Below, in pieces: positions 10,159-57,088 of a DNA stretch of 64,000 nt. Position 1 is the stretch's first letter. Every line of letters begins with the position of its first letter. Below the pieces are notes generated by a model that was given only the letters and a program-made list of their open reading frames with translations, made no database searches and had not been told where the DNA came from. The position numbers and the translations under genes are program-made. The DNA is from Octopus vulgaris (taxonomy: Eukaryota): NCBI GenBank assembly GCA_951406725.2, contig OX597824.1:34038001-34102000 (forward strand), in the 5' to 3' direction.

Positions 10159-10483
10159 TATATTAACATGGAATAAAATACAATATGTATAAGAAGTGCC
10201 TACACATGTTTCAATCCGGTCACTATGTAAACAGTGCTTCGGAATATTTAAACCATGTTAATAGTTTTAGATGTAAAAATTAACAACAAATATGTAAAAT
10301 ATGTAAAAGCATTAGCTTTTTGAATAAGATAGCCCTGAAGATATCTGTACACTTGATGTTATTTTTTACATCTAAAACTATTAACATGGCACAAATATTC
10401 TGAAGCATTATTTACATAGAGACCAGATAGAAACATGTGTAGGCACTTCTTATACATATTGTATTTTATTTCACGTTAATATA
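10159..10483. repeat. Diverged inverted repeat (arms ~10159-10289 / 10353-10483) of a hammerhead-bearing element
   Basis: For example AATAAAATACAATATGTATAAGAAGTGCCTACACATGTTTC versus GAAACATGTGTAGGCACTTCTTATACATATTGTATTTTATT. Confidence 0.9.
10332..10444 (+). ncRNA. Type I hammerhead motif with long loop II
   Basis: GCC-CTGAAGA-TATCTG..76 nt..CAGATA-GAAAC-ATGT-GTA-GGC. Confidence 0.75.
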
Positions 10484-12449: not shown

Positions 12450-12858
12450 AATTGCAGATGTGTTACCAGTGCCGGTGGCATGTAAGAGAACCTTCCGTTT
12501 CACGACCGTTGCCAGCACCGCCCCGACTGACCTCGTGCCGATGCACGTAAAAAGCACCATCCGTTCGTGTCCATTGCCAGCCTCGCCTGGCCCTCGTGCC
12601 GGTGGCACATAAAAAGCACCATCCGTTCGTGGCCGTTTGCCAGCTCTGTCTGGCACCTGTGCGTGTGGCACGTAAAAAGCACCCACTACACTCACGGAGT
12701 GGTTGGCGTTAGGAAGGGCATCCAGCCGTAGAAACACTGCCAGATTTGACTGGGCCTGATGAAGCCTTCTGGCTTCACAGACCCCAGTAGAACCGTCCAA
12801 CCCATGCTAGCATGGAAAACGGACGCTAAACGATGATGATGATGATGATGATGATGAT
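12450..12858 (+). mobile_element. RTE-tail SINE with internal ~60-65-bp imperfect repeats
   Basis: Repeated GGCACGTAAAAAGCACC-like motif and a (GAT)n tail. Confidence 0.75.
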
Positions 12859-12866
12859 ACATATAT

Positions 12867-13711
12867 ATCTAATATAGGATAGAATTTTTGAAAATATTTT
12901 ACGAATGGCCAGCATATTAAAAAAATACTTTTAAAGGTTAAATTTATAAACAACTTATAAACAACGGCAAAAGAAAACAATTTCAATGCCAAATATGCCG
13001 AAATAGACTTAATCGTCAATAACCACATAATTTATTACTATAAGCATGCGTCTCGAAAGCAAGCCAATAGAAATTTCTAAAAAGATTTCATTATTGTCGG
13101 ATCAGTCCCAATTTCTGAGTTAATTTATTTAGACTTTTCTTGTCATCAGCAATAAATATGATAAGAAAATAAATGAGATACTTACTTGTACCCATGGAAG
13201 AAGTAAACACTAAGTCATGAGCACACTTAAGTACCCCAAATATATCCAAAATAGAAATTCCACAGCATACCTCGAGACACGTGTGATCGGACTAAAAATT
13301 CTCATAGAGTGAGAGAGTCCGGAAGTGAATAGTATTAAATTTACATCTAATATAGGATAAAATTTTTGAAAAAATTTTATCAATGGCTTGCTTTCGAGAC
13401 ACGTGCTTATAGTGATAAATTATATGGTTATTGACAATTAAGTCTATTTAGTCTATTTTCGGCATATTTGCTATTGAAATTTTTTCCTTTTGCCCTTGTT
13501 TATAGGTTGTTTATAAATTTAACATTTAAAGGTATTTTTTTAATATGTTGGCCATTGATAAAATTTTTTCAAACATTTTATCCTATATTAGATGTAAATT
13601 TAATATTATTCACTTCTGGACTCTCTCACTCTATGAGAATTTTCAGTCCAATCACATGTGTCTCGAGGTATGCTGTGGAATTTCTATTTTGGATATATTT
13701 GGGGTACTTAA

Positions 13712-13713
<2 letters not shown>
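12867..13713. mobile_element. Tandem (478-bp period) plus inverted-copy element between microsatellites, PLE pLTR-like architecture
   Basis: ATCTAATATAGGATA occurs at 12867 and 13345. 13385-13711 is the inverse of 12867-13066 plus 13226-13387. Confidence 0.7.
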
Positions 13714-13754
<41 letters not shown>

Positions 13755-13755
<1 letters not shown>

Positions 13756-14373
13756 CAAAGTAGAGATGTGGGTTATCGCACGAGTGGAATTATATACGAA
13801 AGAAGGTTTGAAAATGCAATTTAAAAGATGTTTATATACTTAACCGGTTTCACTCTTTGGAAAAAGATTGTCAAAAGTAACATAGAATATTATGAATTCA
13901 AAAAAGTTGTTTACATAATTGCCACATTACATGTATATATACAGTCTTTGGTAACAGGGACATGTTAAGGACATAAAGAAGTACAACAGTGTGATGAGAA
14001 TATTTGAAGAAATGGGCAGAAAAGAATAAAACAAATATATTATTGGAAGTTTGGTTGCGTTAATTATTGGTTGTTGCAAATTGCCAATAATTTGCAACAA
14101 CCAATAATTAACGCAACCAAACTTCCAATAATATATTTGTTTTATTCTTTTCTGCCCATTTCTTCAAATATTCTCATCACACTGTTGTACTTCTTTATGT
14201 CCTTAACATGTCCCTGTTACCAAAGACTGTATATATACATGTAATGTGGCAATTATGTAAACAACTTTTTTGAATTCATAATATTCTATGTTACTTTTGA
14301 CAATCTTTTTCCAAAGAGTGAAACCGGTTAAGTAAATAAACATCTTTTAAATTGCATTTTCAAACCTTCTTTC
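13755..14373. mobile_element. Palindromic hammerhead-bearing element flanked by (TA)n
   Basis: Arms 13798-14082 / 14089-14373 (285 bp, one mismatch seen, 6-nt spacer). The minus arm extends to 13755. Confidence 0.85.
14291..14335 (+). ncRNA. Minimal hammerhead motif, U3-A8 variant
   Basis: TTACTT-TTGACAA-TCTTT-TTCC-AAAGA-GT-GAAAC-CG-GT-T-AAGTAA. Stem III is the palindrome ACCGGT. Mirror copy at 13836-13880 on the minus strand. Confidence 0.7.
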
Positions 14374-14395
14374 ATATATATATATATATATATAG

Positions 14396-14716
14396 CCTTT
14401 TATTCTTCTATTTGTCTCAGTCATTTGACTACGGCCATGCTGGAGCACTACCTTTAGTCAAGCAAATTGACCCCAGGATTTATTCTTTGTAAGCTTAGTA
14501 CTTATTCTATTGGTCTCTCTTGCCAAACGGCTAAGTGACGGGGATGTAAGCACACCAGCATCAGTTGTCAAGTGATGTTGGGGGGGACAAACACAGACAC
14601 ACTAACACACACACACACACACACACTCACACGCACACACACATATATATATGACGGGCTTCTTTCAGTTTCCATCTACCAAATCCACTCACAAGGCTTT
14701 GCTCAGCCCGAGGCTA
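14396..14716 (-). mobile_element. SINE family A copy (5'-truncated)
   Basis: Reverse complement of the family A body and tail. Confidence 0.75.
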
Positions 14717-18000: not shown

Positions 18001-20325
18001 TTTGATAGGTTTCGGCCATTATTGGCCCAGGCCATGTCCAACTTAATAGCACCACCTGGTGAAGTCTTTCAAGTCAGAATTTGGGCACTATGGCCCACTC
18101 AAGTAGAGAGTTATTGTTTACAGAGACATATCCGGGTGTAGGGGGTTTATCCGGGATTTCTTGAAGGAATCTGTCCAGAGACTTCTTGAACCCTATAGGG
18201 TCAGTTTCTGTTTTAATGTGTTTTGGTGTAATGTTAAAGAGAGCGGGGCCAATTGAGGTGAAATAATTGTGCCGTATTGTTGTTATGAGATGAGAGTGCG
18301 ATTTTTGTTTTGGGCGGATGGCACGGGGCCCAAGCCTTGGATGTACCTTAAAGGTGATGCCAACATCATTTGGGCAATGCTGATGGAATATTTTCCACAT
18401 CATGCAGATGATGTAGCGCTCACGACGACGTTGGAGAGAATAAAGTTTTAGCTTTTCTAGTCGACCCCAATAGTCGAGGCCTGTCATGCCTTCTATCTTT
18501 TTTGTGATTGCCCTTTGAGGTGCTTCAACTTTTATGATACCTTTTATTGTGTGGGGAGACGACAGTGGACAACAGTATTCAAGGTGGGGTCGGGCAAAAG
18601 TGGAGAAGAGAAGGATAATGGTGTGGATATCTCTCGACTGGAAAGTTCTGAGAATCCAGGAACACATTCTGCGGGCCATGTCAACTTTGGTGTTTATATG
18701 AGTGGCCCAGCTTATGTTGTTGTCCACAATTACTCCCAAGTCTCTGATGTTGTTGGACGCCGCGAGAGTTTCACCTGAAGGAAGGGAGTATGGGAGTTTC
18801 AGGGCATCCTCTTTTCCAAAGTTGATTAACTCAAATTTATCCTTGTTCAGCAGCATATTGTTTTTTTCTGCCCATTGGATAACAGCCAGTAGATCTGACT
18901 GAAGGCATGTCTGGTCACTCGCCTCATTTATGACCTTCTGTAGCTTGGAATCATCTGCAAAGATTTTTATGTTGCTGTGCTTGATGATGTCATTAATGTC
19001 ATTAATGTAAATGATGAAAAGAAGTGGGCCCAGCACAGTGCCTTGCGGAACACCACTACTGACTTTGGCTGGGCTTGATTTTACCCCTTCAACTACAACA
19101 TGTTGAGATCTGTCTGTCAGGAAACACTTGATCCATTTCAGTAACTTTCCAGAGACACCAATGTTGGATAGTTTTTTCAATAGGATCTTGTGATCGACCC
19201 TGTCGAAGGCCTTACTGAAATCAAGGTAGATGACATCGGTGTTGGAGCCCTCTCCCAAAGCTCTCAAAATGTCATCAAAGTGATGCAGGAGCTGCGTTAG
19301 GCAGTCCCTTCCATTACGGAACCCATGTTGGTTAGAGATCAGCCGTCTGTTGCTTTCCAGAAATTGGGTTATTCGAGATCTCACCACCCTCTCAAATACC
19401 TTGATGATATGAGAGGTGAGTGAGATCGGACGGTAGTTCACTGCAAGGGACTTGTTTCCCTTTTTGAAAACTGGGACAACAGACTGGGACAGAAGGTTTT
19501 TTGGAATATAGCCAGCATCCAGTGAGTTTCTCCACAGATTAGCAAGGGGAGGTGCAAGTTGGTGTCGACACACCTTCAGGACACAAGCAGGGAACCTATC
19601 GGGCCTACTGCTGAATTGTGTTTTATTTCGTTTATCGCCACTAAGACATCAGGGGCACTAAACGTTATGTCCGATATAGTGTGTTGGGGGTTGACATCAC
19701 TGATACAGCCCAGATCGGCCATATCAGGATTGCTGAAAACAGAGCAGTATTGTTTCTGCAGTATCTCGGCCATGGATTTGGCATTATCTTGAAGAGTGCC
19801 AGTTTCATCAATTAGAGGGCCAACAATGGAGACAGTGACCCTGCGTTTCCTCGCAAATGAAAAGAACACTTTGGGGTTGAGTTTGATTTTTTCAATGGCC
19901 CACTTCTCCTCAGCTGATCTTTGGTTATTGATGAGGGTCTTCATGCATTGTTGGAGGTTATATTTTTTGGATTCAAGCAGTGCGATAGCCGTCGAATGTG
20001 TGTGTTGCTGTTGGCAGTACTTTAGTTTGTTAATTTTTTTGTTTGTTCTTTTTATTTTTCTGATAATGGTTTTCTGTTTTGGGGGATTCTGCACTTTTTG
20101 TTCACAGGTCTTGGTGGGGAGTGTTTTGCACATATGTCTGTGACGGTGTCTACAAAGATCTGCCAGGATGTTTTATGGTTGGTGGAGATGTGTGTATGTG
20201 TAAAGGACCAGTCAACATGTGATAGCTCGTTCCTGATTGCATCCCAGTTGGCATTATGGAGATCCATGTTGTCAACTGGGTGGGCTGGAGGGAGGTCACT
20301 AGGATTAGCTTTCGGCTGGTGGAAT
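18001..20325 (-). mobile_element. 5'-truncated CR1-group LINE; ORF2 reverse transcriptase open over 18074-19573, frameshifted upstream
   Basis: NYRPISLTS, QHGFRNGR, YLDFSKAFDRV, SGVPQGTVLGPLLF, FADDSKL, RDLGV, LEYCCPL. Flanked by (TA)n on both sides. Confidence 0.93.
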
Positions 20326-22261: not shown

Positions 22262-25200
22262 TCCTACCTAAATAAGATCTGTATGAACCATCATTATTAG
22301 GCCACATCTACTGTGGAACGAGCTGTTCATCCAGTCTATATCAGTCTACTAGGTTATAGCTCCCTAGTAGCCTTTTAAGGCCAGGACTTCCCCTTCTATC
22401 TATCAAGTCAACACTATCCACACATGCGTCAAGAATAGTGTTAAAATCTCCTGCTAAAACTAGATTTTATGACGTTACCAGAAAGCTCTCCAGGTCTTAA
22501 AAAACCCAGCTTATCTACACTCACTAGGAGCGTAAACAGCTACCAGCCTGAAGGAGTTCTCACTTGCGTATGTCACATTTAGGACGATCAGCTTACATTC
22601 TGTTTCCAGAAAGACTGTACTTACCTGTACGTCCAAGTTTTTCTGAACAAGACCATCACGCCCCTGCCTCCCCGTCGACTAGGAGAAATAAATTTCTCAA
22701 AGCCATTTAGAAGAGGTAAGAACACCTGTGGCCTGTTCAACTTGCACTCAGTCACCACACGTATCAATTTCTAGTGACCTGAGGTCATCCAGGAGACAAG
22801 TTTGCTTCCATTTCAACCCTAGGCCACAAACATTTATACAACCTAACTTAATTTCCATGGTAAAAATAAGAAACTTACATTTTGAACATGGGGAGGGGCT
22901 GCACGAATTCACCAGCTTCCCCTTCCTTTTCTTTCTGAGGTGTAGCCGCTGGGCTAAGCACAAGTCGTTTATTGGCCATCTCTTGGTTAACATCTTGTAT
23001 GTCCTGTGAGTATATCATTTTAGATTGTTCAAATAAGTCTGCTTCTATCCTTGCCAACCGTATATTCGGTGGCATACCTTGTATTGTTCATAAAATATAC
23101 AATTTTTTATGCACAGTTATTATTCTCACAAGAACATCATTTTTCTCATTGTACTTCGAAATCCTTTCTCTTAGAGCATTTTTGGAGCGGGGTGGTTGGT
23201 GACGGGTTTCAACTTGGGGGTGGATTGGGGAGATTTTTTCTGTGTGTTTTGCATTGTGTGTAAATATTTTCTTTGTCAGGGGAGGGGAGTCTGGGGCATG
23301 GGCTTTTTTTTCTTTTATGTGAAATCACTGTGGTAAATTCCATTTCCTCTTCGGCTTCCTTCTGTTGTGTGTTTTCTACATTTTGTTCATCCCTTTCTTC
23401 GGCTTTTTCTGTGACGCTTTCTGTGATGCTTTCCATTGCTTTCTTGTTATTTTCTTTTTTTCTTTTTTTTTTTTTTTTATTTTTTCACAGTCCAAGCGAA
23501 TGTACCCTTTTTCTCCACATTTAAAACATCTGGCTCTATGTCCCTCGACTGATACTTTAGCGCTTAGTCCCTCCTCTATAAAAATGCGGTCTGACCTTGA
23601 TTCAAGCACATCATTTGAGGCTTGAACCACCATCTCAAGTGCTTGGCCTTTCCAGTTTAGAGCCTCTCTCTTTTTCATCTGGAGTATTGTTATCTCCCCC
23701 TCTGCATCATAAATTACAGCCGCTGCCATCCATGTTATGTCTTAACCAGCTGGTATTTCCTCTATAGTTATTTTTGTAGTTCTCCGGCCTAGGTAGGTCG
23801 GGAGCAACATTATCTCATCACTTTTTAGAGTTTGGGTCGATATTTCTTTTGCTATTTCAGCGTTCTCAAATTGTGCCTCAACAGTGGTGCTTCTTGGTCC
23901 TCGACCGACATAGGTAATTTTTCCCCATATGGGGGCAAGGCACTTTTCTACTATTTCATTCCTCACAGGCATAATTCTTTTTTCCTTCTGGTTATATTAG
24001 GTTGTCAAGAAAGTTCTTGTGGAATTTTTAATTTTGGTTTTAAATGTTGTATTTTCAAATTAAATTTCATTAAATTACTTTGACTTTATATATCATTTTA
24101 AACCCCATTTTTCGCTCTATTGAATCATGCTACTCTTTTTCTTTTTGAATAATTAGGCCATTTTTTCCAGAACGTTGACTACAACATGGACAAAGAGCAA
24201 ATTCACACAATTTTCTTATTTCAGTTCAAGCTAGGGCAAAAAGCTGCTGAAACAGCTCGCAATATCAATGATGCATTTGGCCCAGGAACCACTCATGAAC
24301 GTAGTGGTGATGAGAGTCTTGAAGATGATAAGCGTAGTGGTCAGCCATCGAATGTTGACAACGATCAACTAAGAGCCTTAGTGGAAGCCAATTCATGCAC
24401 AACTGTTCGAGAGCTTGCTTCTGAATTAGACGTAATGTATACAATTTCCAGCCACTTGAAAGAGATTGGAAAAACAAAAATACTTGAGAAATGGGTGCTG
24501 CAAAAATTGAACAACAACCAAAAAAAAAAACGCCATTTTGAAGTGTCATTTTTTCCTACTTTTATGCAACAAAAACAACCTGTTTCTTAACCGGATTGTG
24601 ACTTTCAATGTAAAGTGGATTCTTTACAACAATTGGCAATGCTCAGCACAGTGGTTGGATGCCGACAAAGCTCCACGGCACTTCCCAAAGCCAAAGTTGC
24701 ACCAAAAGAAGGCCATGGTGACTGTTTGGTGGTCTGCAGCCAGTTTCATCCATCACAGCTTTTTGGATCCAGGAGAAACCATTATGGCGGAGAAGTACTG
24801 TCAGCAAATGGATGAAATACCTAAGAAACTCCGACAGCAACAGCCAACATTGGTTAATAGAAAAGGACCAATTCTTCTCCATGACAACACTCAGCCACAC
24901 GTCGCACAACTGACCCTGCAGAAGTTGGGCAAATTGGGCTATGAAACTCTGCCTCATCCACCATACTCACCAGACCTCTCGCCTACCGACTACCACTTTT
25001 TCAAGCATCTCGACAACTTCCTGCATGAGAAATGCTTCAAAAACCAAGACGATGCCAAACACGCCTTCAATGACTTCATCACCACCAGAACACAGGATTT
25101 TTACACTACTGGCATAAATAAACATGTTTTGTGTTGGCAAAAGTGTGTTGATTCTAATGGTGCTTATTTCAACTAATAAAGTTTTGTTTGAGCTGAGATA

Positions 25201-28141: not shown

Positions 28142-28146
<5 letters not shown>

Positions 28147-28454
28147 TGCAGCGTGGAAGGTGTTTGTAAGCCATTTAAGAAACACACAAAAGCCATTCGA
28201 TTCATTTCAACATTTAAGTTTAATTTGTCAAAATATTTTCATCGCTTTAAGACCGTGACCTGTTCACAGACAAAAATCCGTGCTGCATCTTAAAGCGACA
28301 AAAATATTTTGACAAATTAAACTTAAATGTTGAAGTGAATCGAACGGCTTTTGTGTGTTTCTTAAATGGCTTACAAACACATTCCACGCTGCAATTGTTA
28401 TCGTTCCAGCACACGATCTCAGATCAAATCACTTGCTATGCGAGTACATCTCCG

Positions 28455-28514: not shown

Positions 28515-28524
<10 letters not shown>

Positions 28525-28792
28525 TTAGAGATAAAACCACTATTATGCAACTCAAACAGTGATAGACATAAACCAATACATAAATAACAAATAATATATA
28601 TTTTTATAAGTTATAAGTTATATGTTTTATAAAAATATATATTATTTGTTATTTATGTATTGGCTTATGTCTATCAATGTTATAGTACATAATAGTGGTT
28701 TTATCTCTAATTTATATTTTATATATTTATACTGTGAAATTCGATTTAATACTCAATTGAATTTTCCCCTGTAAGTTTGGAGTTATACTCCC

Positions 28793-30420: not shown

Positions 30421-32143
30421 TAATAAGAACAGGTCCCATATTTTATGGTTCGCCCTGCTCTTCTCCATAAATGTTAGGATTATATAGGTAGAAGATTCTT
30501 ACACTTATTAGATATTCACTTCCCCAGCAGCCACAGGTATAGAAGGATATTTAATAGGTACACAGTTAAAATCACATTTTCTTGCCTCCTAATGTGATGG
30601 CTTATATCAGTAAACAACCAATGTCTCAGACCTGTCCTGGATGCACATGTGGAGATAAATTTAAATGTCCTCTAGGGCAGGCATATGACATATCTTCCAT
30701 TGTTTATGAAGCACAGGTCTCAGCAAACTATCATTAATGGCCAGACCAAGACCATTATACTGGATCAGTGGAAGGAAAATGTAAATCTAGATATAACAAC
30801 TATATTTCAACCTTTAGACACGTGGAAAAGAGAAACTGACATTTAACAACTCTCTCGGCATTAATTTAGAGACTAAAAGATGAGAACATCTGCTACAACA
30901 TCAAATGGAAGATCCCTTCTAAGTCCAAACCCTAAATCAATTGGTCTAATGATGTTCCATATGCTCACTTGAACAACTGTATTTGTTAAAAGACTTAAGA
31001 ACCCCCAATAACTGTGTAAATACCAGGAGCAAAATTTTTTCTTTATGTCCACATTTCACAAAATACATCTTAGCAGAATATAAGGATAAACTACTGGACA
31101 CATTATGCCAATTATATTTACTGTGAAGTTATTTACGTCCCCTCAGTCTACTTCCCAATGCATGTGTTCATTCAAACATTAATTGCATTGAATGCAGTTT
31201 ATAAATCATCTTGTTGTTTTAACAGCTTGATAAATGGCAAAATAAATTAATATTTCAGCCAGGAAACCCTGGGTAGCTGTGTGTGGCCTAGTAGTTAAGG
31301 TTTTGTACTCAAGATCTTGCAATCATGGTTTTGATTCCTGGACTGGGTAGTGCTTTGTATTCTTGAGCAAAACATTTCGTTTCACATTGCAGGGTTACTC
31401 ATTTTCAGTTGAGATGGATTGGGGAAATGGACTGGCATCCTTTTCAGGGAGAATGTTGTGTTCTTAGTCACTTATACTCTATGGAAACCAGATAACCACC
31501 CCTGTGAGTCCTAGGGGGCCAAGACAGTACAGGAGGGAAGATATAGTGAATTTAATTGGTCATAGTTGTTGTCTGATATTTTGAATTTTTTATTGACTCT
31601 GGAAACCTGAAAAGCAGCGTCAGTTTTTGCAGGATTTCAATTTAAAACATAAATGACTATAACTAAACATTGCAAAGCCAAATTTCTCCAGCAATCCACC
31701 ACCATTACGAAGTTTCAATAGTAGTATGATACTTTGAAATTCAAAAGTTGTGTGGTTAAGAAGCTTGCTTTGTAACCACATGGTTTCAGATTCAGTCCCA
31801 CTGCTTGGCACCATGAGTAAATGTATTCTGTAATAGCCTTAGGTAAACAGATGTGAGTGAATTTGGGAGGAACCTGTGTGGAAACCTGGTGTGTGCATGT
31901 GAGAGTGTGTGTGTAATAATGAAGGCAGGTATGTGCAATATAAAACCAAAAAGGAAAAATTCAGTTATGACTGACGGTGCAGGTTAACACCTACATTGCT
32001 AGAAATAAGAGTTAAAAACCCTTAGAGCTGCAAAAAACTACATGTTTATCTGGTTCTCTCCCCTGTCAGTGCATAGACATGTGCTTTTTTTATTTCTAAC
32101 AATGTAGATACTACTCTGCACCATCAGTCACAATCAATGAGAC

Positions 32144-41552: not shown

Positions 41553-41756
41553 CAACAGCACGGATTTTTGTCAGTGAACAGGTCGCGGTCTTAAAGCGAC
41601 GAAAATATTTTGACAAATTAAACTTAAATGTTGAAGTGAATCGAACGGCTTTAGTGTGTTTCTTAAATGGCTTACAAACACCTTCCAGGCTGCAATTGTT
41701 TTCGTTTCAGCACACGATCTCAGATCAAATCACTTGCTATGCAAGTACATCTCCGT
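41553..41756 (+). mobile_element. ~204-bp hammerhead-bearing non-autonomous retroelement with 15-bp TSD
   Basis: AATATTCTACAAATA at 41538-41552 and 41757-41771. Body nearly identical to the 28142-28457 family. Confidence 0.88.
41567..41617 (+). ncRNA. Minimal type I hammerhead motif, G3-C8 variant
   Basis: TTTGTCA-GTGAACA-G-GTCGC-GGTCTTAAA-GCGAC-GAAA-ATAT-T-T-TGACAAA. Stem I 7 bp, stem II 5 bp, stem III palindrome AATATT. Confidence 0.8.
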
Positions 41757-42495
41757 AATATTCTACAAATATCTTTTAGATAATGTACAGGGTGGTCCGA
41801 AAGCCTCGTCGCCACCTGTAAATATTGTTTTAATTTTCTATCATCAAGGAGAGAGTTTCACAAGAGCGATACCAGAATAAATAACAGTTGAAAGACGCTG
41901 TTTCAGCAGCCTTTGCAGCAATCACCAAAGCACTGCTTCATAAAATATCACACAGGACATAACGCCGCATCATTTTGTGCCTCGAAATGATGGTGTTCAT
42001 ACAGCTCTTCTCGATGTGTGACAGTGTCAGTATCAATGAAAGGGAACATACTAAAACCAGCACATGTGTTTGATATTATTATATTGTTCTTCTATTGTTC
42101 TTATTACTTTTCGGTAGAGGGTGGCAAAGACTTTAGGACCACCCGATAGATTGCGATTATGTCAGAATTTGATATGGAAAAGAGAAGAAAACAAAGTTGG
42201 TGCCCACGCACAGATACATACTGTCGCATATCGCGTATATATCCACAAAATGAAAGTTGAAAATTTGTAGACATATACGTGATATGTATCAGAATGCATG
42301 TGTGAGCTCCTAACTTTTTTTTTACATTAAATTTTAATACAGTCGTTGACTACACCATCTGAACGGTATTTGTAGAATATTCCATTAAAAATTCTCGATT
42401 TTTCTATAAGTTATGAAGAAACAAAGTCAGAGGGCACAGTTATGTAGATTTGCCATATATGTGCGTATTGTTAGCTCTTGGTTTTATCATATCTA

Positions 42496-42623
<128 letters not shown>

Positions 42624-42965
42624 CTACAAAATGAGAAAATGGAGAAACATACTTAAATCAATCAATCATCAACCATCAGATAATACCCAATCAATACTTT
42701 ATTACACCATTACATAACAGCAATGACATTATACATAATATATTGCAAATATAACTAGACATGGAAATAGAAATATAAAATACAATTACATCATATCTGA
42801 CAGCTGTTTTATATATTATGTTCTAAGATTTTGCTAAGAGACCAATAACCCAGTGTAGAACTCATTATATGTATGTTTCAGAACGAAGTTTTGGCTGAAT
42901 ATAGAGCAGTAATAAGAAAGAGAGATGACAAAGGAATTAATGATTATTTTATGAACTTGATTAGC

Positions 42966-43041
42966 TTACAGGTGTTTCTGCTATAAGACGCAGTGGACTC
43001 AACTACAAGTCCTCTACATCTTATAGCAGAAACAGCTGTAA
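42966..43041. repeat. Hairpin whose arms are hammerhead 3' halves
   Basis: TTACAGGTGTTTCTGCTATAAGA..TCTTATAGCAGAAACAGCTGTAA; GAAAC-AGCT-GTA on + and GAAAC-ACCT-GTA on minus. Confidence 0.7.
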
Positions 43042-43057
43042 CCTTATATATATATAG

Positions 43058-50536: not shown

Positions 50537-50822
50537 TATTTAAAAAAGGATTGCTGCAGTTGTGATAGTTAAAGGTGAAAGTTGTGAGCTGGCAGAATTG
50601 TTAGCAAGTAGGACAAACTGCTAAGCAGCATTTTTTCAGGCTCTTTTTGTTCTGAGTTCAAATCTTGTCAAAGTTAACTTTGCCCTTCATTCTTTTGGAG
50701 TTGATATAATAAAATACCAGTCAATTACTGGGATCAATGTTATTGACATTTGCCTTTTCAAAATTGTTGGTCTATTGTAGGATCCAAGACCAACAATTTT
50801 GAAAGGGCAAATGTCAATAACA

Positions 50823-54720: not shown

Positions 54721-57088
54721 TCTATCTCTTATGATAAAAGGCAGATTTTCTCTGCCTCCCAAACCGCTCATTTTTTATACAATTGTACAATATAGAATTT
54801 CTTCAATTGGAATTTACCTATCATTTTTCCAAGTAGATTCCATTGAGTCATGGCATGTAAAGTTTTTTCAATTTCACCCCCAATTAAGCAAAAATTCGAG
54901 AAAACTCAATATTTTACGATTTTCCTCTTTCATTTCAAGTGCTTCACTCCTACAATTACCACTACACTTTCTCCTCCTTTCTCTTTGCAAGTGTGCAACA
55001 ATTAAAGGGAAAGTATTTATATAAAAGGGATGAGCAATTAATACTGGTCATCCTTTTTGCTAGAGGAAGATCCGCTATGGTCTTATATGCTACACCACTG
55101 GTTTTCAATTCATATTAATCAAATAAATATTCAATTTTTCACCCTTATTATGTGTGTGTGTATTAGCAATTCGTATAAAATTGCATCAATGACTTGAACT
55201 TGAATAAGTGGTTTCACATAAATGGGGATACATTAAAAAGGTTTGTTGTTATTATTATTACTGTTTGACTATTGTAATCATGTTTGTTGGTTCCTCGTCA
55301 GGGAAACGTTGTTGCGTTGCATTTGTTAAATAATTGTAAACCGTAATCCTCCCCCTTTCGGAGAAGGGGCTTTGGTTATTGTTTTAAAATTGAATTGTGT
55401 CCCTGTTTGGGGAAATTGACAATATTTTCACCGTCTTTACGGAAGCATTTTTGTTAAAATACCTTCGATAGAAGAAAGTCCAAAAATAAACTTCGCTGCA
55501 GCCGTACACTTTTATACAAGAGGGAGGACAAGATACAATTGATCGAAATTGCAAGAGACGGGCCTACAATTCCAGTCTGTTATATATTTTGAGTATTGTT
55601 ATCACTAGCGATATCAAGATATAACTTTCTAGTTTGTATTTTATGTGTAGATGTATATATATATAGATGTACATGTAATATGTACACATATATATATATA
55701 CACATATATACATGCATAATATATCTACCCATACACACACACGTATACACACACACACACACATACATAGGGGCAGGTGTGGCTGTGTGGTAACAAACTA
55801 CGTTCGAAGATACTGTACTTGATATGGGTGGTAGTGCCTTGCCGGTCTATGGCCTACCTTCAACAAACCGGGAAGGTACAAACACTCTGTCTTCACATTT
55901 GCTGCGTGAGACATGTTTTAATGTTGACGAGCTTGCCGAGTACATAGCCGACAATGAGCCAAAGCTCCTTCCAGAACAGAAGTTTGCTTACAACTCCGTT
56001 GTTAATTCAGTCCGGGCCAAAGCTGTAGGGATATTTTTCCTGGACGCTGGGAAAACTTTTCTCAACAAATTAATATTGGCTGAGATTAGGCGAACACAAG
56101 GCATTGCCCTAGCTGTGGCATCATCTGGAATTGCGGCTACTTTGTTGCCAGGCGGCAGGACAGCTCACTCCACTTTCAAGCTTCCGCTTGACTTAGCGAA
56201 GACTGAGACACCAACTTGCAACATCAGTAACAGCTCCGATCAGGGAGAAGTCTTCAGACGATGCAAGCTTATCGTTTGGGATGAATGCACGATGGCCCAC
56301 AGAGGTGCTCTTGAGGCACTAGATAGATCTCTCAGAGACATCAAACACTCTTCAGCTCCCATGGGAGGCATAACACTTCTTCTTTCAGGGGACTTCCGAC
56401 AAACACTTCCCGTTATTCCCAAAAGGACTAGAACTGATGCAGTAAGTGCGTGTCTTAAGTCATCCACATTGTGGCCACTGGTGAAGACTCTCAAACTTCA
56501 CACCAATATGCGTGCTCATATGTGACGTAATATCACATCAGCAGCATTTTCTCACACCCTCCTTGCACTTGGCGAAGGCAAAATACCAGGGGATGAAAAT
56601 GGTAATATTGCCATCGATTCCATTTGTACCATTGTTAAAATGCCTTCTGATCTCAGAGATGCAGTGTTCCCAGATGTACAAGCTAATTATCAGAATATGG
56701 ATTGGATTGGCCAAAAGGGCTATTCTGGCCCTGAGGAATAAAACTGTTCACCATATTAATGATGAAATGCTAAAACTCATTCCTGGGGATGTCTATGTAT
56801 ATAAGTCTATCGAGGACGTCATCAACTATCCAATAGAGGTAATCAATTCCTTTGAGCCCCCTGGACTACCACCACACATTCTCAAACTTAAAGTTGGTGC
56901 TCCTATAATGCTCATTAGAAATTTGGTTCCCCCAAAACAATGCAATGGCACACGTTTGATCGTTAAGTCCTTATCTCCCACCGTAAACTTATATCAATAT
57001 TTGCCTGAATAATCATCATAATTCAGTGCAATCATCAACAGTACTTTCAAGCAATTCAGCCCCGAGCATCGCCGGGCAATTCTGCTTG
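54721..57088 (+). mobile_element. Internally deleted Helitron
   Basis: Putative 5' A|TCTATCTCTTATGATAAAAG, PIF1 helicase relic, and 3' hairpin CCCG..CGGG (57061-57076) followed by CTTG|T (degenerate CTAG). The 5' boundary is less certain. Confidence 0.7.
55824..56985 (+). pseudogene. Helitron PIF1-family helicase pseudogene
   Basis: FFLDAGKTF (Walker A missing PGGT), AVASSGIAATLLPGGRTAHSTFKLP, IVWDECTM, GDFRQTLPV, GLPPHILKLKVGAPIMLIRNL..CNGTRL. Frameshifted. Confidence 0.92.

Follow-up and report, generated by a model that had tools for sequence, protein, structure and literature searches.

The question raised by this locus is how a near-perfect palindrome with an outward-facing hammerhead ribozyme motif in each arm came to stand between two (TA)n microsatellites in the genome of Octopus vulgaris, and what the ribozymes might do there. 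We analysed it within a window of 64,000 nt, a term that denotes the whole stretch of DNA under study. The reading that we favour, with a probability of roughly 0.8, is that of a recent, ORF-less insertion composed of two head-to-head, 5'-truncated 3' ends of a Penelope-like element (PLE), probably of Hydra type, which likely arose from a cut in a (TA)n tract, both ends of which would have been primed; that the palindrome is of PLE origin at all we regard as very likely.

Base-by-base comparison of the two halves placed the arms at 13798–14082 and 14089–14373, 285 bp apiece, with a sole mismatch (13836/14335) and a 6-nt spacer (14083–14088), so that the palindrome of the preliminary description was recovered as such. 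The left arm, whose element sense lies on the minus strand and which appears to be a 5'-truncated 3' end of the element, extends 43 unpaired nt beyond the reach of the right arm (13755–13797, minus strand). The inner end of this tail (13791–13796) reads TATATA and is mirrored also by the right-hand (TA)n, which leaves 36 nt strictly one-sided if this TATATA is discounted together with the base next to it; reading the tail as a TATA-box/initiator was set aside, since DNA so rich in A/T would readily offer such a match by chance. The right arm is untailed, has its element sense on the plus strand and stops directly before the element's internal (G)TATATA. Surrounding the palindrome are TA runs of 40 nt (13714–13753) and 20 nt (14374–14393): the left microsatellite, annotated at 13714–13754 with a boundary uncertain by 1 nt, is the likely insertion target, whilst the right one (14374–14394) heads a common SINE-like repeat. 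The left (TA)n is itself abutted by a MITE-like element of 487 bp (13226–13712) with 162-bp terminal inverted repeats (96 % alike), a more diverged relative of which lies at 12858–13091. No further copies of the palindrome's family were found by blastn in the 64-kb window.

The divergence between the arms amounts to 1/285, or 0.35 % (95 % Poisson interval 0.01–2.0 %). As 2 % is the threshold for recent activity used in PMC13282606, which for O. vulgaris counts 31 Penelope-like families as recently active, the earlier designation of the palindrome as young holds with respect to this limit, although its age is read from arm identity only, and conversion between the arms or polishing of the assembly could lead us to underestimate it.

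The hammerhead motifs, proposed beforehand for both arms, were confirmed at starts +14297 and −13874, both facing outward with their cores 423 nt apart. Each is of type I, with the core UUGACAA (U3-A8), GAA, a 16-nt stem-II region, a palindromic 6-nt stem III and U17. The right motif (14291–14335, plus strand), which lies 44 nt from the arm end, comprises stem I (14291–14296/14330–14335), the core (14297–14303), the stem-II region (14304–14319), GAA (14320–14322), stem III (14323–14328) and U17 (14329). The left motif occupies 13837–13879 on the minus strand, with its core at 13874–13868 and its predicted cut at 13842/13841, 87 nt from the element end. As already suspected, the single arm mismatch falls at the edge of stem I, where it takes the outermost pair, such that this stem has 6 bp in the right arm and 5 bp in the left. 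In the general hammerhead numbering, the motif conforms to the type-I core (N3 U4 G5 A6 N7 N8 A9, a Watson–Crick 3-8 pair, G12 A13 A14, A15.1-U16.1 and H17). It is without the G10.1-C11.1 closing pair of the metazoan PLE consensus, a pair that is conserved and not universal, and closes stem II either by U.U followed by C-G or by U-A with a 2-nt bulge.

A broad descriptor allowing any Watson–Crick 3-8 pair matched only 10 of 2000 shuffled arms, and its six sites in the window compare with an average of 0.42, and never more than 3, over 100 local dinucleotide shuffles. These six represent four independent motifs, as four of the sites are the arm pairs of the palindromes at 13755 and 654. A U3-A8 descriptor, tightened after the motif had been seen, matched none of 5000 shuffled arms and none of 300 shuffled windows. 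Rfam at its gathering score returned no match in the 64-kb window and hence recognised no hammerhead there; at E ≤ 10, positions 13700–14450 gave 36 matches, none to a hammerhead family, and these sub-gathering matches, mostly to miRNA-like hairpin models, were rejected as generic. Rfam thresholds, as well as descriptors restricted to CUGANGA, overlook motifs such as these.

Stem II can be drawn in two registers, the first with 5 bp and 2 nt bulged before GAAA, and the second, free of any bulge, closed by a U.U mismatch that is followed by 5 bp (C-G, U-A, U.G, U-A and U-A) and a 4-nt loop. The preliminary description had considered the motif slightly non-canonical on account of two unpaired nucleotides, a view that is not supported as it stands. 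The bulged register is favoured in the isolated hairpin (0.65 versus 0.15 for the U.U register) and preferred in the dimer by 1.8 kcal/mol; in the context of the core, however, the bulge-free register is nearly equal (−1.9 versus −1.7 kcal/mol for the bulged one). Closure of stem II by U.U is the commonest pattern tabulated for the Hydra clade in PMC8557442 (14 of 25 families, the 26 rows of that table including one family listed on both strands and counted here once); U.U followed by C-G, as in the present motif, occurs in four of the 25, and U17 in ten. Given that the U.U register is free of bulges and that U.U closure is common in the Hydra clade, the motif can be taken as an ordinary PLE hammerhead without assuming that bases were lost, and a family consensus of ACTCTTT/AAAGAGT for stem II, which had been envisaged earlier, is not required.

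Turning to the identity of the element, to which the preliminary description assigned no class, the locus shows the hallmarks of a PLE: a type-I hammerhead close to the 3' end or within the pseudo-LTR; a 5'-truncated, inverted head-to-head copy, its orientation read from the hammerheads; and a one-sided tail. Inverted 5'-truncated copies, tails of 30–40 bp that are often present at one end only, and (TA)n targets have been described for PLEs, and in Penelope-13_HM a truncated copy lies inverted, so that either strand bears a hammerhead (PMC8557442). The (TA)n on both sides hides any target-site duplication, as has likewise been noted for other PLEs. Insertion into (TA)n, a trait of the Hydra clade, is found here and is shared with Naiad and Neptune, and so is not diagnostic. 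Of the insert, at most 334 nt belong to the element, and they hold no recognisable ORF: two open frames of 53 codons in the arms matched none of the Pfam families, and a comparison of one arm frame with 1.84 billion proteins yielded just one match, weak, repetitive and in five stretches (E = 4.6 × 10−4).

The Hydra clade (for example Hydra-1_Obim and Penelope-13_HM; Craig et al. 2021, PMC8557442) offers a close set of likenesses, namely a (TA)n target, an inverted 5'-truncated copy, presence in Octopus, frequent U.U closure of stem II and U17, and a hammerhead about 40 or about 90–115 nt from the 3' end with TATAT at the short end. In our palindrome the distance from the predicted cut to the end of the element is 44 nt on the untailed side (51 nt if the shared TATATA is counted) and 87 nt on the tailed one. 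Amongst six Hydra consensus 3' ends, counted by hand, three end 36–47 nt after the cut, two of those in ATATA or ATATATT, whilst the other three end at 88–116 nt and have an internal TATAT 23–45 nt after the cut. In disagreement with a Hydra assignment is the observation that all 25 tabulated Hydra families have C3-G8 and none has U3-A8 (PMC8557442); furthermore, unlike the Hydra elements described there, our copy is ORF-less, and its hammerhead sequence is unlike that of Hydra-1_Obim. PLE membership is thus read from architecture, and placement within the Hydra clade is probable.

Several other systems resemble the palindrome in part. The minimal PLE hammerheads of Cervera and de la Pena 2014 (PMC4209133), including the U3-A8 family Cercyon of Schistosoma mansoni, are likewise of type I with a short palindromic stem III and occur on opposite strands 100–700 bp apart; the U3-A8 variant of the core exists there as a covariation (2 of 56 aligned motifs, and about 1300 matches in S. 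mansoni). Unlike these, the present motif has no G10.1-C11.1 pair and an A/U-rich stem II of only 5 bp. The Poseidon element PAc of Anolis carolinensis (Frangieh et al. 2024, PMC11167929) shares with the palindrome an AT-rich target and a pair of 3' end points that differ by a tail, with one end about 87 nt past the ribozyme cut; in contrast, the PAc ORF starts inside the ribozyme, where our locus has only an overlapping 20-codon frame, and PAc initiates without target homology, whereas the inner end of the palindrome has homology to the TA repeat. The inverted pseudo-LTRs (pLTRs) of Penelope elements in Adineta vaga (Arkhipova et al. 2013, PMC3846280) are similarly head-to-head, with palindromes at the junctions and an optional 31-bp tail, but as a rule border an ORF and come with target-site duplications; our copy is ORF-less, and its (TA)n surroundings hide any duplication. 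Lastly, animal non-LTR retrozymes (bioRxiv 10.64898/2026.07.22.740005) are non-coding, carry a type-I hammerhead and have a proposed origin in PLE pseudo-LTRs. They are described as head-to-tail tandems with ribozymes on one strand, and a retrozyme identity was rejected for the palindrome, which is an inverted pair with one motif per strand.

As such, the architecture, the tail, the (TA)n target and the U3-A8 core variant are all already described for PLEs, and the palindrome as an object is ordinary: one more truncated PLE insertion, of a family not matched to a published consensus. Four short probes from the element, including its tail (seven probes in total), had no match in the supplement of Craig et al. 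2021 (PMC8557442), a text in which line-wrapped FASTA may hide matches. The family is probably uncatalogued, and the O. vulgaris repeat library of PMC13282606 may contain it.

Several such palindrome families lie within these 64 kb of octopus DNA, and three kinds of 3-8 pair (C-G, U-A and G-C) occur amongst the hammerheads. The palindrome at 654–1482 has arms of about 414 bp that differ by one homopolymer indel, a 1-nt spacer, and C3-G8 hammerheads at +1369 and −768 with a 60-nt stem-II region; its short end lies 35 nt past the predicted cut, and its tail has a 7-nt A/C-rich motif in common with the tail at 13755. The preliminary description was correct both in assigning the two palindromes the same architecture ((TA)n on both sides, one arm longer, ribozyme motifs outward) and in calling them unrelated in sequence, as blastn found no match of ours inside 654–1482 and 13 of 200 shuffles aligned locally as well.

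A solo U3-A8 type-I hammerhead at 31222–31280 (plus strand; core at 31227, stem I of 5 bp, stem III of 4 bp, A17) lies about 100–130 nt downstream of a decayed ORF (about 30570–31120, plus strand) that contains CxCX5C, CxxC and CxH. A CxCX5C linker with CxxC and CxH, and no CCHH, is the pattern given for the Hydra-clade endonuclease; the motifs lie at about 30640–31100, and we recognise this element, by eye and by motif, as a putative degenerate, 5'-truncated PLE with Hydra-clade endonuclease motifs. About 50 of 121 aligned residues match Hydra-1_Obim in a hand count; in a word-indexed protein search with 30570–30965, none of 30 candidates reached E ≤ 1 × 10−5, and Pfam gave no identification. 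The element belongs to a different family from the palindrome, with 41 of 200 shuffles aligning as well; it nevertheless ties a U3-A8 hammerhead to a Hydra-like frame inside the window, a link that we count in favour of a PLE origin.

A further element at 41556–41761 (plus strand) carries a hammerhead at 41567–41617 with a G3-C8 core, a 5-bp G/C-rich stem II, a palindromic stem III, U17 and a 7-bp stem I. It is a single-orientation, 5'-truncated copy of a family that also has a palindromic copy at 28142–28454, with which it shares a 3' end and in which the hammerhead core has decayed. Judged from the solo copy, the centre of the 28142 palindrome (28142–28398; centre roughly 40 nt) is sense sequence of the untailed arm. 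G3-C8 is absent from the 56 motifs of PMC4209133 and the 25 Hydra families of PMC8557442, and a search of the literature for a natural G3-C8 hammerhead found none; this motif is arguably more unusual than the palindrome at 13755. Adjoining the 28142 palindrome is another, (TA)n-flanked one at 28515–28792 with one arm longer and arms about 95 % alike, in which our hammerhead descriptors found no match. An older palindrome at 10159–10483 (arms about 88 % alike) has a degenerate GAAAC-containing motif in each arm and no intact hammerhead core, and short, imperfect palindromes of about 85 bp are present at 50738–50822 and 42960–43047. The presence of C3-G8, U3-A8 and G3-C8 cores across the families of the window speaks for selection on the 3-8 pair in active elements, with the caveat that cleavage was dispensable in vitro for one PLE (PMC11167929).

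How, then, could the two arms have been formed? Given a PLE origin, we lean slightly towards separate priming at each end of the target. Under this model a GIY-YIG/RT protein, supplied in trans, would cut both strands of the (TA)n tract. The left end would prime cDNA at the outer site, 87 nt past the predicted cut, to yield the tailed arm, and the right end at the inner site, 44–51 nt past the cut, to yield the untailed one; the inner site, GUAUAUA, is complementary to a TA-repeat primer by six Watson–Crick pairs and one G.T. Both cDNAs would then halt once they had run some 200 nt beyond the ribozyme, on its upstream side, and be joined via self-complementary AATT, leaving the 6-nt spacer, on either side of which AATT is indeed found as a possible junction microhomology. 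Consistent with such a scheme, a PLE protein has been reported to cut and extend both target strands in vitro, to have two internal RT start sites a tail apart, with the preferred start 85–92 nt past the ribozyme cut, and to be a predicted dimer (PMC11167929). Against pairing with the target is the report in the same source that PAc initiates at sites non-homologous to the cut DNA. The TATA match at the inner end varies between palindromes, being weaker at the short end of the one at 654, longer at 28515 and only 2–3 nt at 28142. Also against priming from both ends is the near coincidence of the arm ends (6 nt apart here, 1 nt at 654), for which a single cDNA folding back on itself is the easier explanation.

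Such a fold-back is the strongest competitor and, if a PLE origin is granted, falls somewhat short of even odds. A single cDNA, begun at the outer site with the left (TA)n end as primer, would fold at AATT with a 6-nt loop and copy itself as far as the internal TATATA, which would anneal to the other (TA)n end; weighed against every reading of the locus, this sequence of events retains a substantial minority chance. A variant of it invokes self-priming on an antisense template (Arkhipova et al. 2013, PMC3846280). Beyond the close meeting of the arms in both palindromes, the near identity of the arms speaks for a fold-back, as does the spacer when read on the minus strand, where it forms an 8–9-bp inverted repeat with 14101–14109 that resembles the palindromes found at the 5' end of rotifer pLTRs, junction palindromes having been read as a sign of self-priming (PMC3846280). 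Read on the plus strand, however, the same spacer continues a series of short direct repeats (14084, 14101 and 14125) belonging to the untailed arm, and a tail cannot arise by copying an arm that has none. Moreover, as the centre of the 28142 palindrome is sense sequence of the untailed arm, neither of its arms is a plain copy of the other; this asymmetric centre could, nevertheless, reflect a later deletion.

Extending the model of separately primed ends to other loci, we tentatively suggest, at somewhat less than even odds, that ORF-less palindromes are fossils of twin-primed integration, in which a dimeric PLE protein primes on both ends of a cut (TA)n, at the tail end of the RNA and at an internal UAUAUA paired with the target repeat, and the two cDNAs are joined head-to-head. 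A literature search for PLEs and 'twin priming' returned only an unrelated review, and the idea may still be published; inverted copies are not discussed in the passages of PMC11167929 consulted here. The origin of PLE inverted repeats is listed as unresolved in PMC8557442. Young two-ended copies record both integration junctions as well as the centre and, were twin priming true, counts of octopus junctions could settle how PLE inverted repeats and tails form.

With regard to the ribozymes, a transcript of either strand meets the antisense arm first. Folding of read-through RNA gave a long hairpin (about −500 kcal/mol) with a probability of about 1 × 10−18 for stem II, and the 285-bp hairpin is predicted to bury the ribozyme fully. 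With antisense sequence leading in either transcript and the ribozyme expected to lie hidden in the duplex, the hammerheads are likely inactive at this locus. They may instead be passengers, perhaps acting in the RNA of the parent element: in the model preferred above, the hammerhead would ride along from the element's pseudo-LTR, a second copy in trans would complete stem III, and the element's protein would probably also be needed.

We consider it improbable that the palindrome is instead an active ribozyme cassette, in which promoters in the arms transcribe outward and the resulting RNAs dimerise in trans and cleave, so that transcripts of the host are processed or terminated. The palindromic stem III permits a dimer, pLTRs can act as bidirectional promoters (PMC3846280), and for RNAs starting inside an arm the predicted probability of stem II was 0.5–0.65 at five of six start points; for the same RNAs, however, that of stem I was at most 0.02. 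In addition, the fold with a double hammerhead lies 8–10 kcal/mol above the best dimer (5.2 kcal/mol for the motif at 41574), in nearest-neighbour energies that leave out tertiary contacts of the core; in the best predicted dimer, U17 lengthens the palindromic duplex. Minimal PLE hammerheads have also been reported to cleave weakly or poorly in vitro, as dimers, and the PAc ribozyme to need its protein, to leave no cut reads in RNA-seq and to be dispensable for insertion in vitro (PMC11167929). Searches of the literature for the U3-A8, G3-C8 and C3U/G8A hammerhead variants yielded no usable cleavage rates. In this single sequence the pairings for three helices round the core exist, stem III being completed in a dimer, and the predicted minimum fold differs from them.

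Amplification and assembly are known to create near-perfect palindromes artificially; we judge a library or assembly fold-back very unlikely here, as the mirror ends at defined points with unrelated flanks beyond (score 16, where shuffles average 18.9), the palindrome has a tail, a spacer and a mismatch, and older, decayed palindromes of similar layout (83–90 % self-identity) occur in the window. Least probable of all is a MITE or fold-back DNA transposon inserted at TA with a hammerhead-like motif by chance, which would fit the long inverted repeats and TA targets typical of Tc1/mariner-type MITEs, in a window that holds a mariner transposase remnant and the element with 162-bp inverted repeats, but which is at odds with ends made asymmetric by the 43-nt tail on one arm rather than symmetric terminal repeats, with the rarity of the motif in shuffled arms (10 of 2000), and with the matching relative position of the hammerheads in two palindromes of unrelated sequence, those at 654 and 28142.

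Transcription of any such locus would yield about 285 bp of perfect double-stranded RNA, on which RNA editing or small-RNA silencing might act in a cephalopod. The window as a whole is A/T-rich and microsatellite-rich, and contains remnants of LINE, mariner and PIF1 type. Of these, the mariner-type transposase, which is frameshifted, lies at 24153–25176 (plus strand), and a PIF1-like, Helitron-like helicase remnant at 55794–57012 (plus strand). On the minus strand, at 18077–19648 and 19576–20172, we found a LINE in which the reverse transcriptase frame is open for 523 codons (Pfam RVT_1), with large microsatellite blocks interrupting it upstream; amongst the 120 matches listed for this reverse transcriptase, the best identity was 63 %, to a protein of Argonauta hians.
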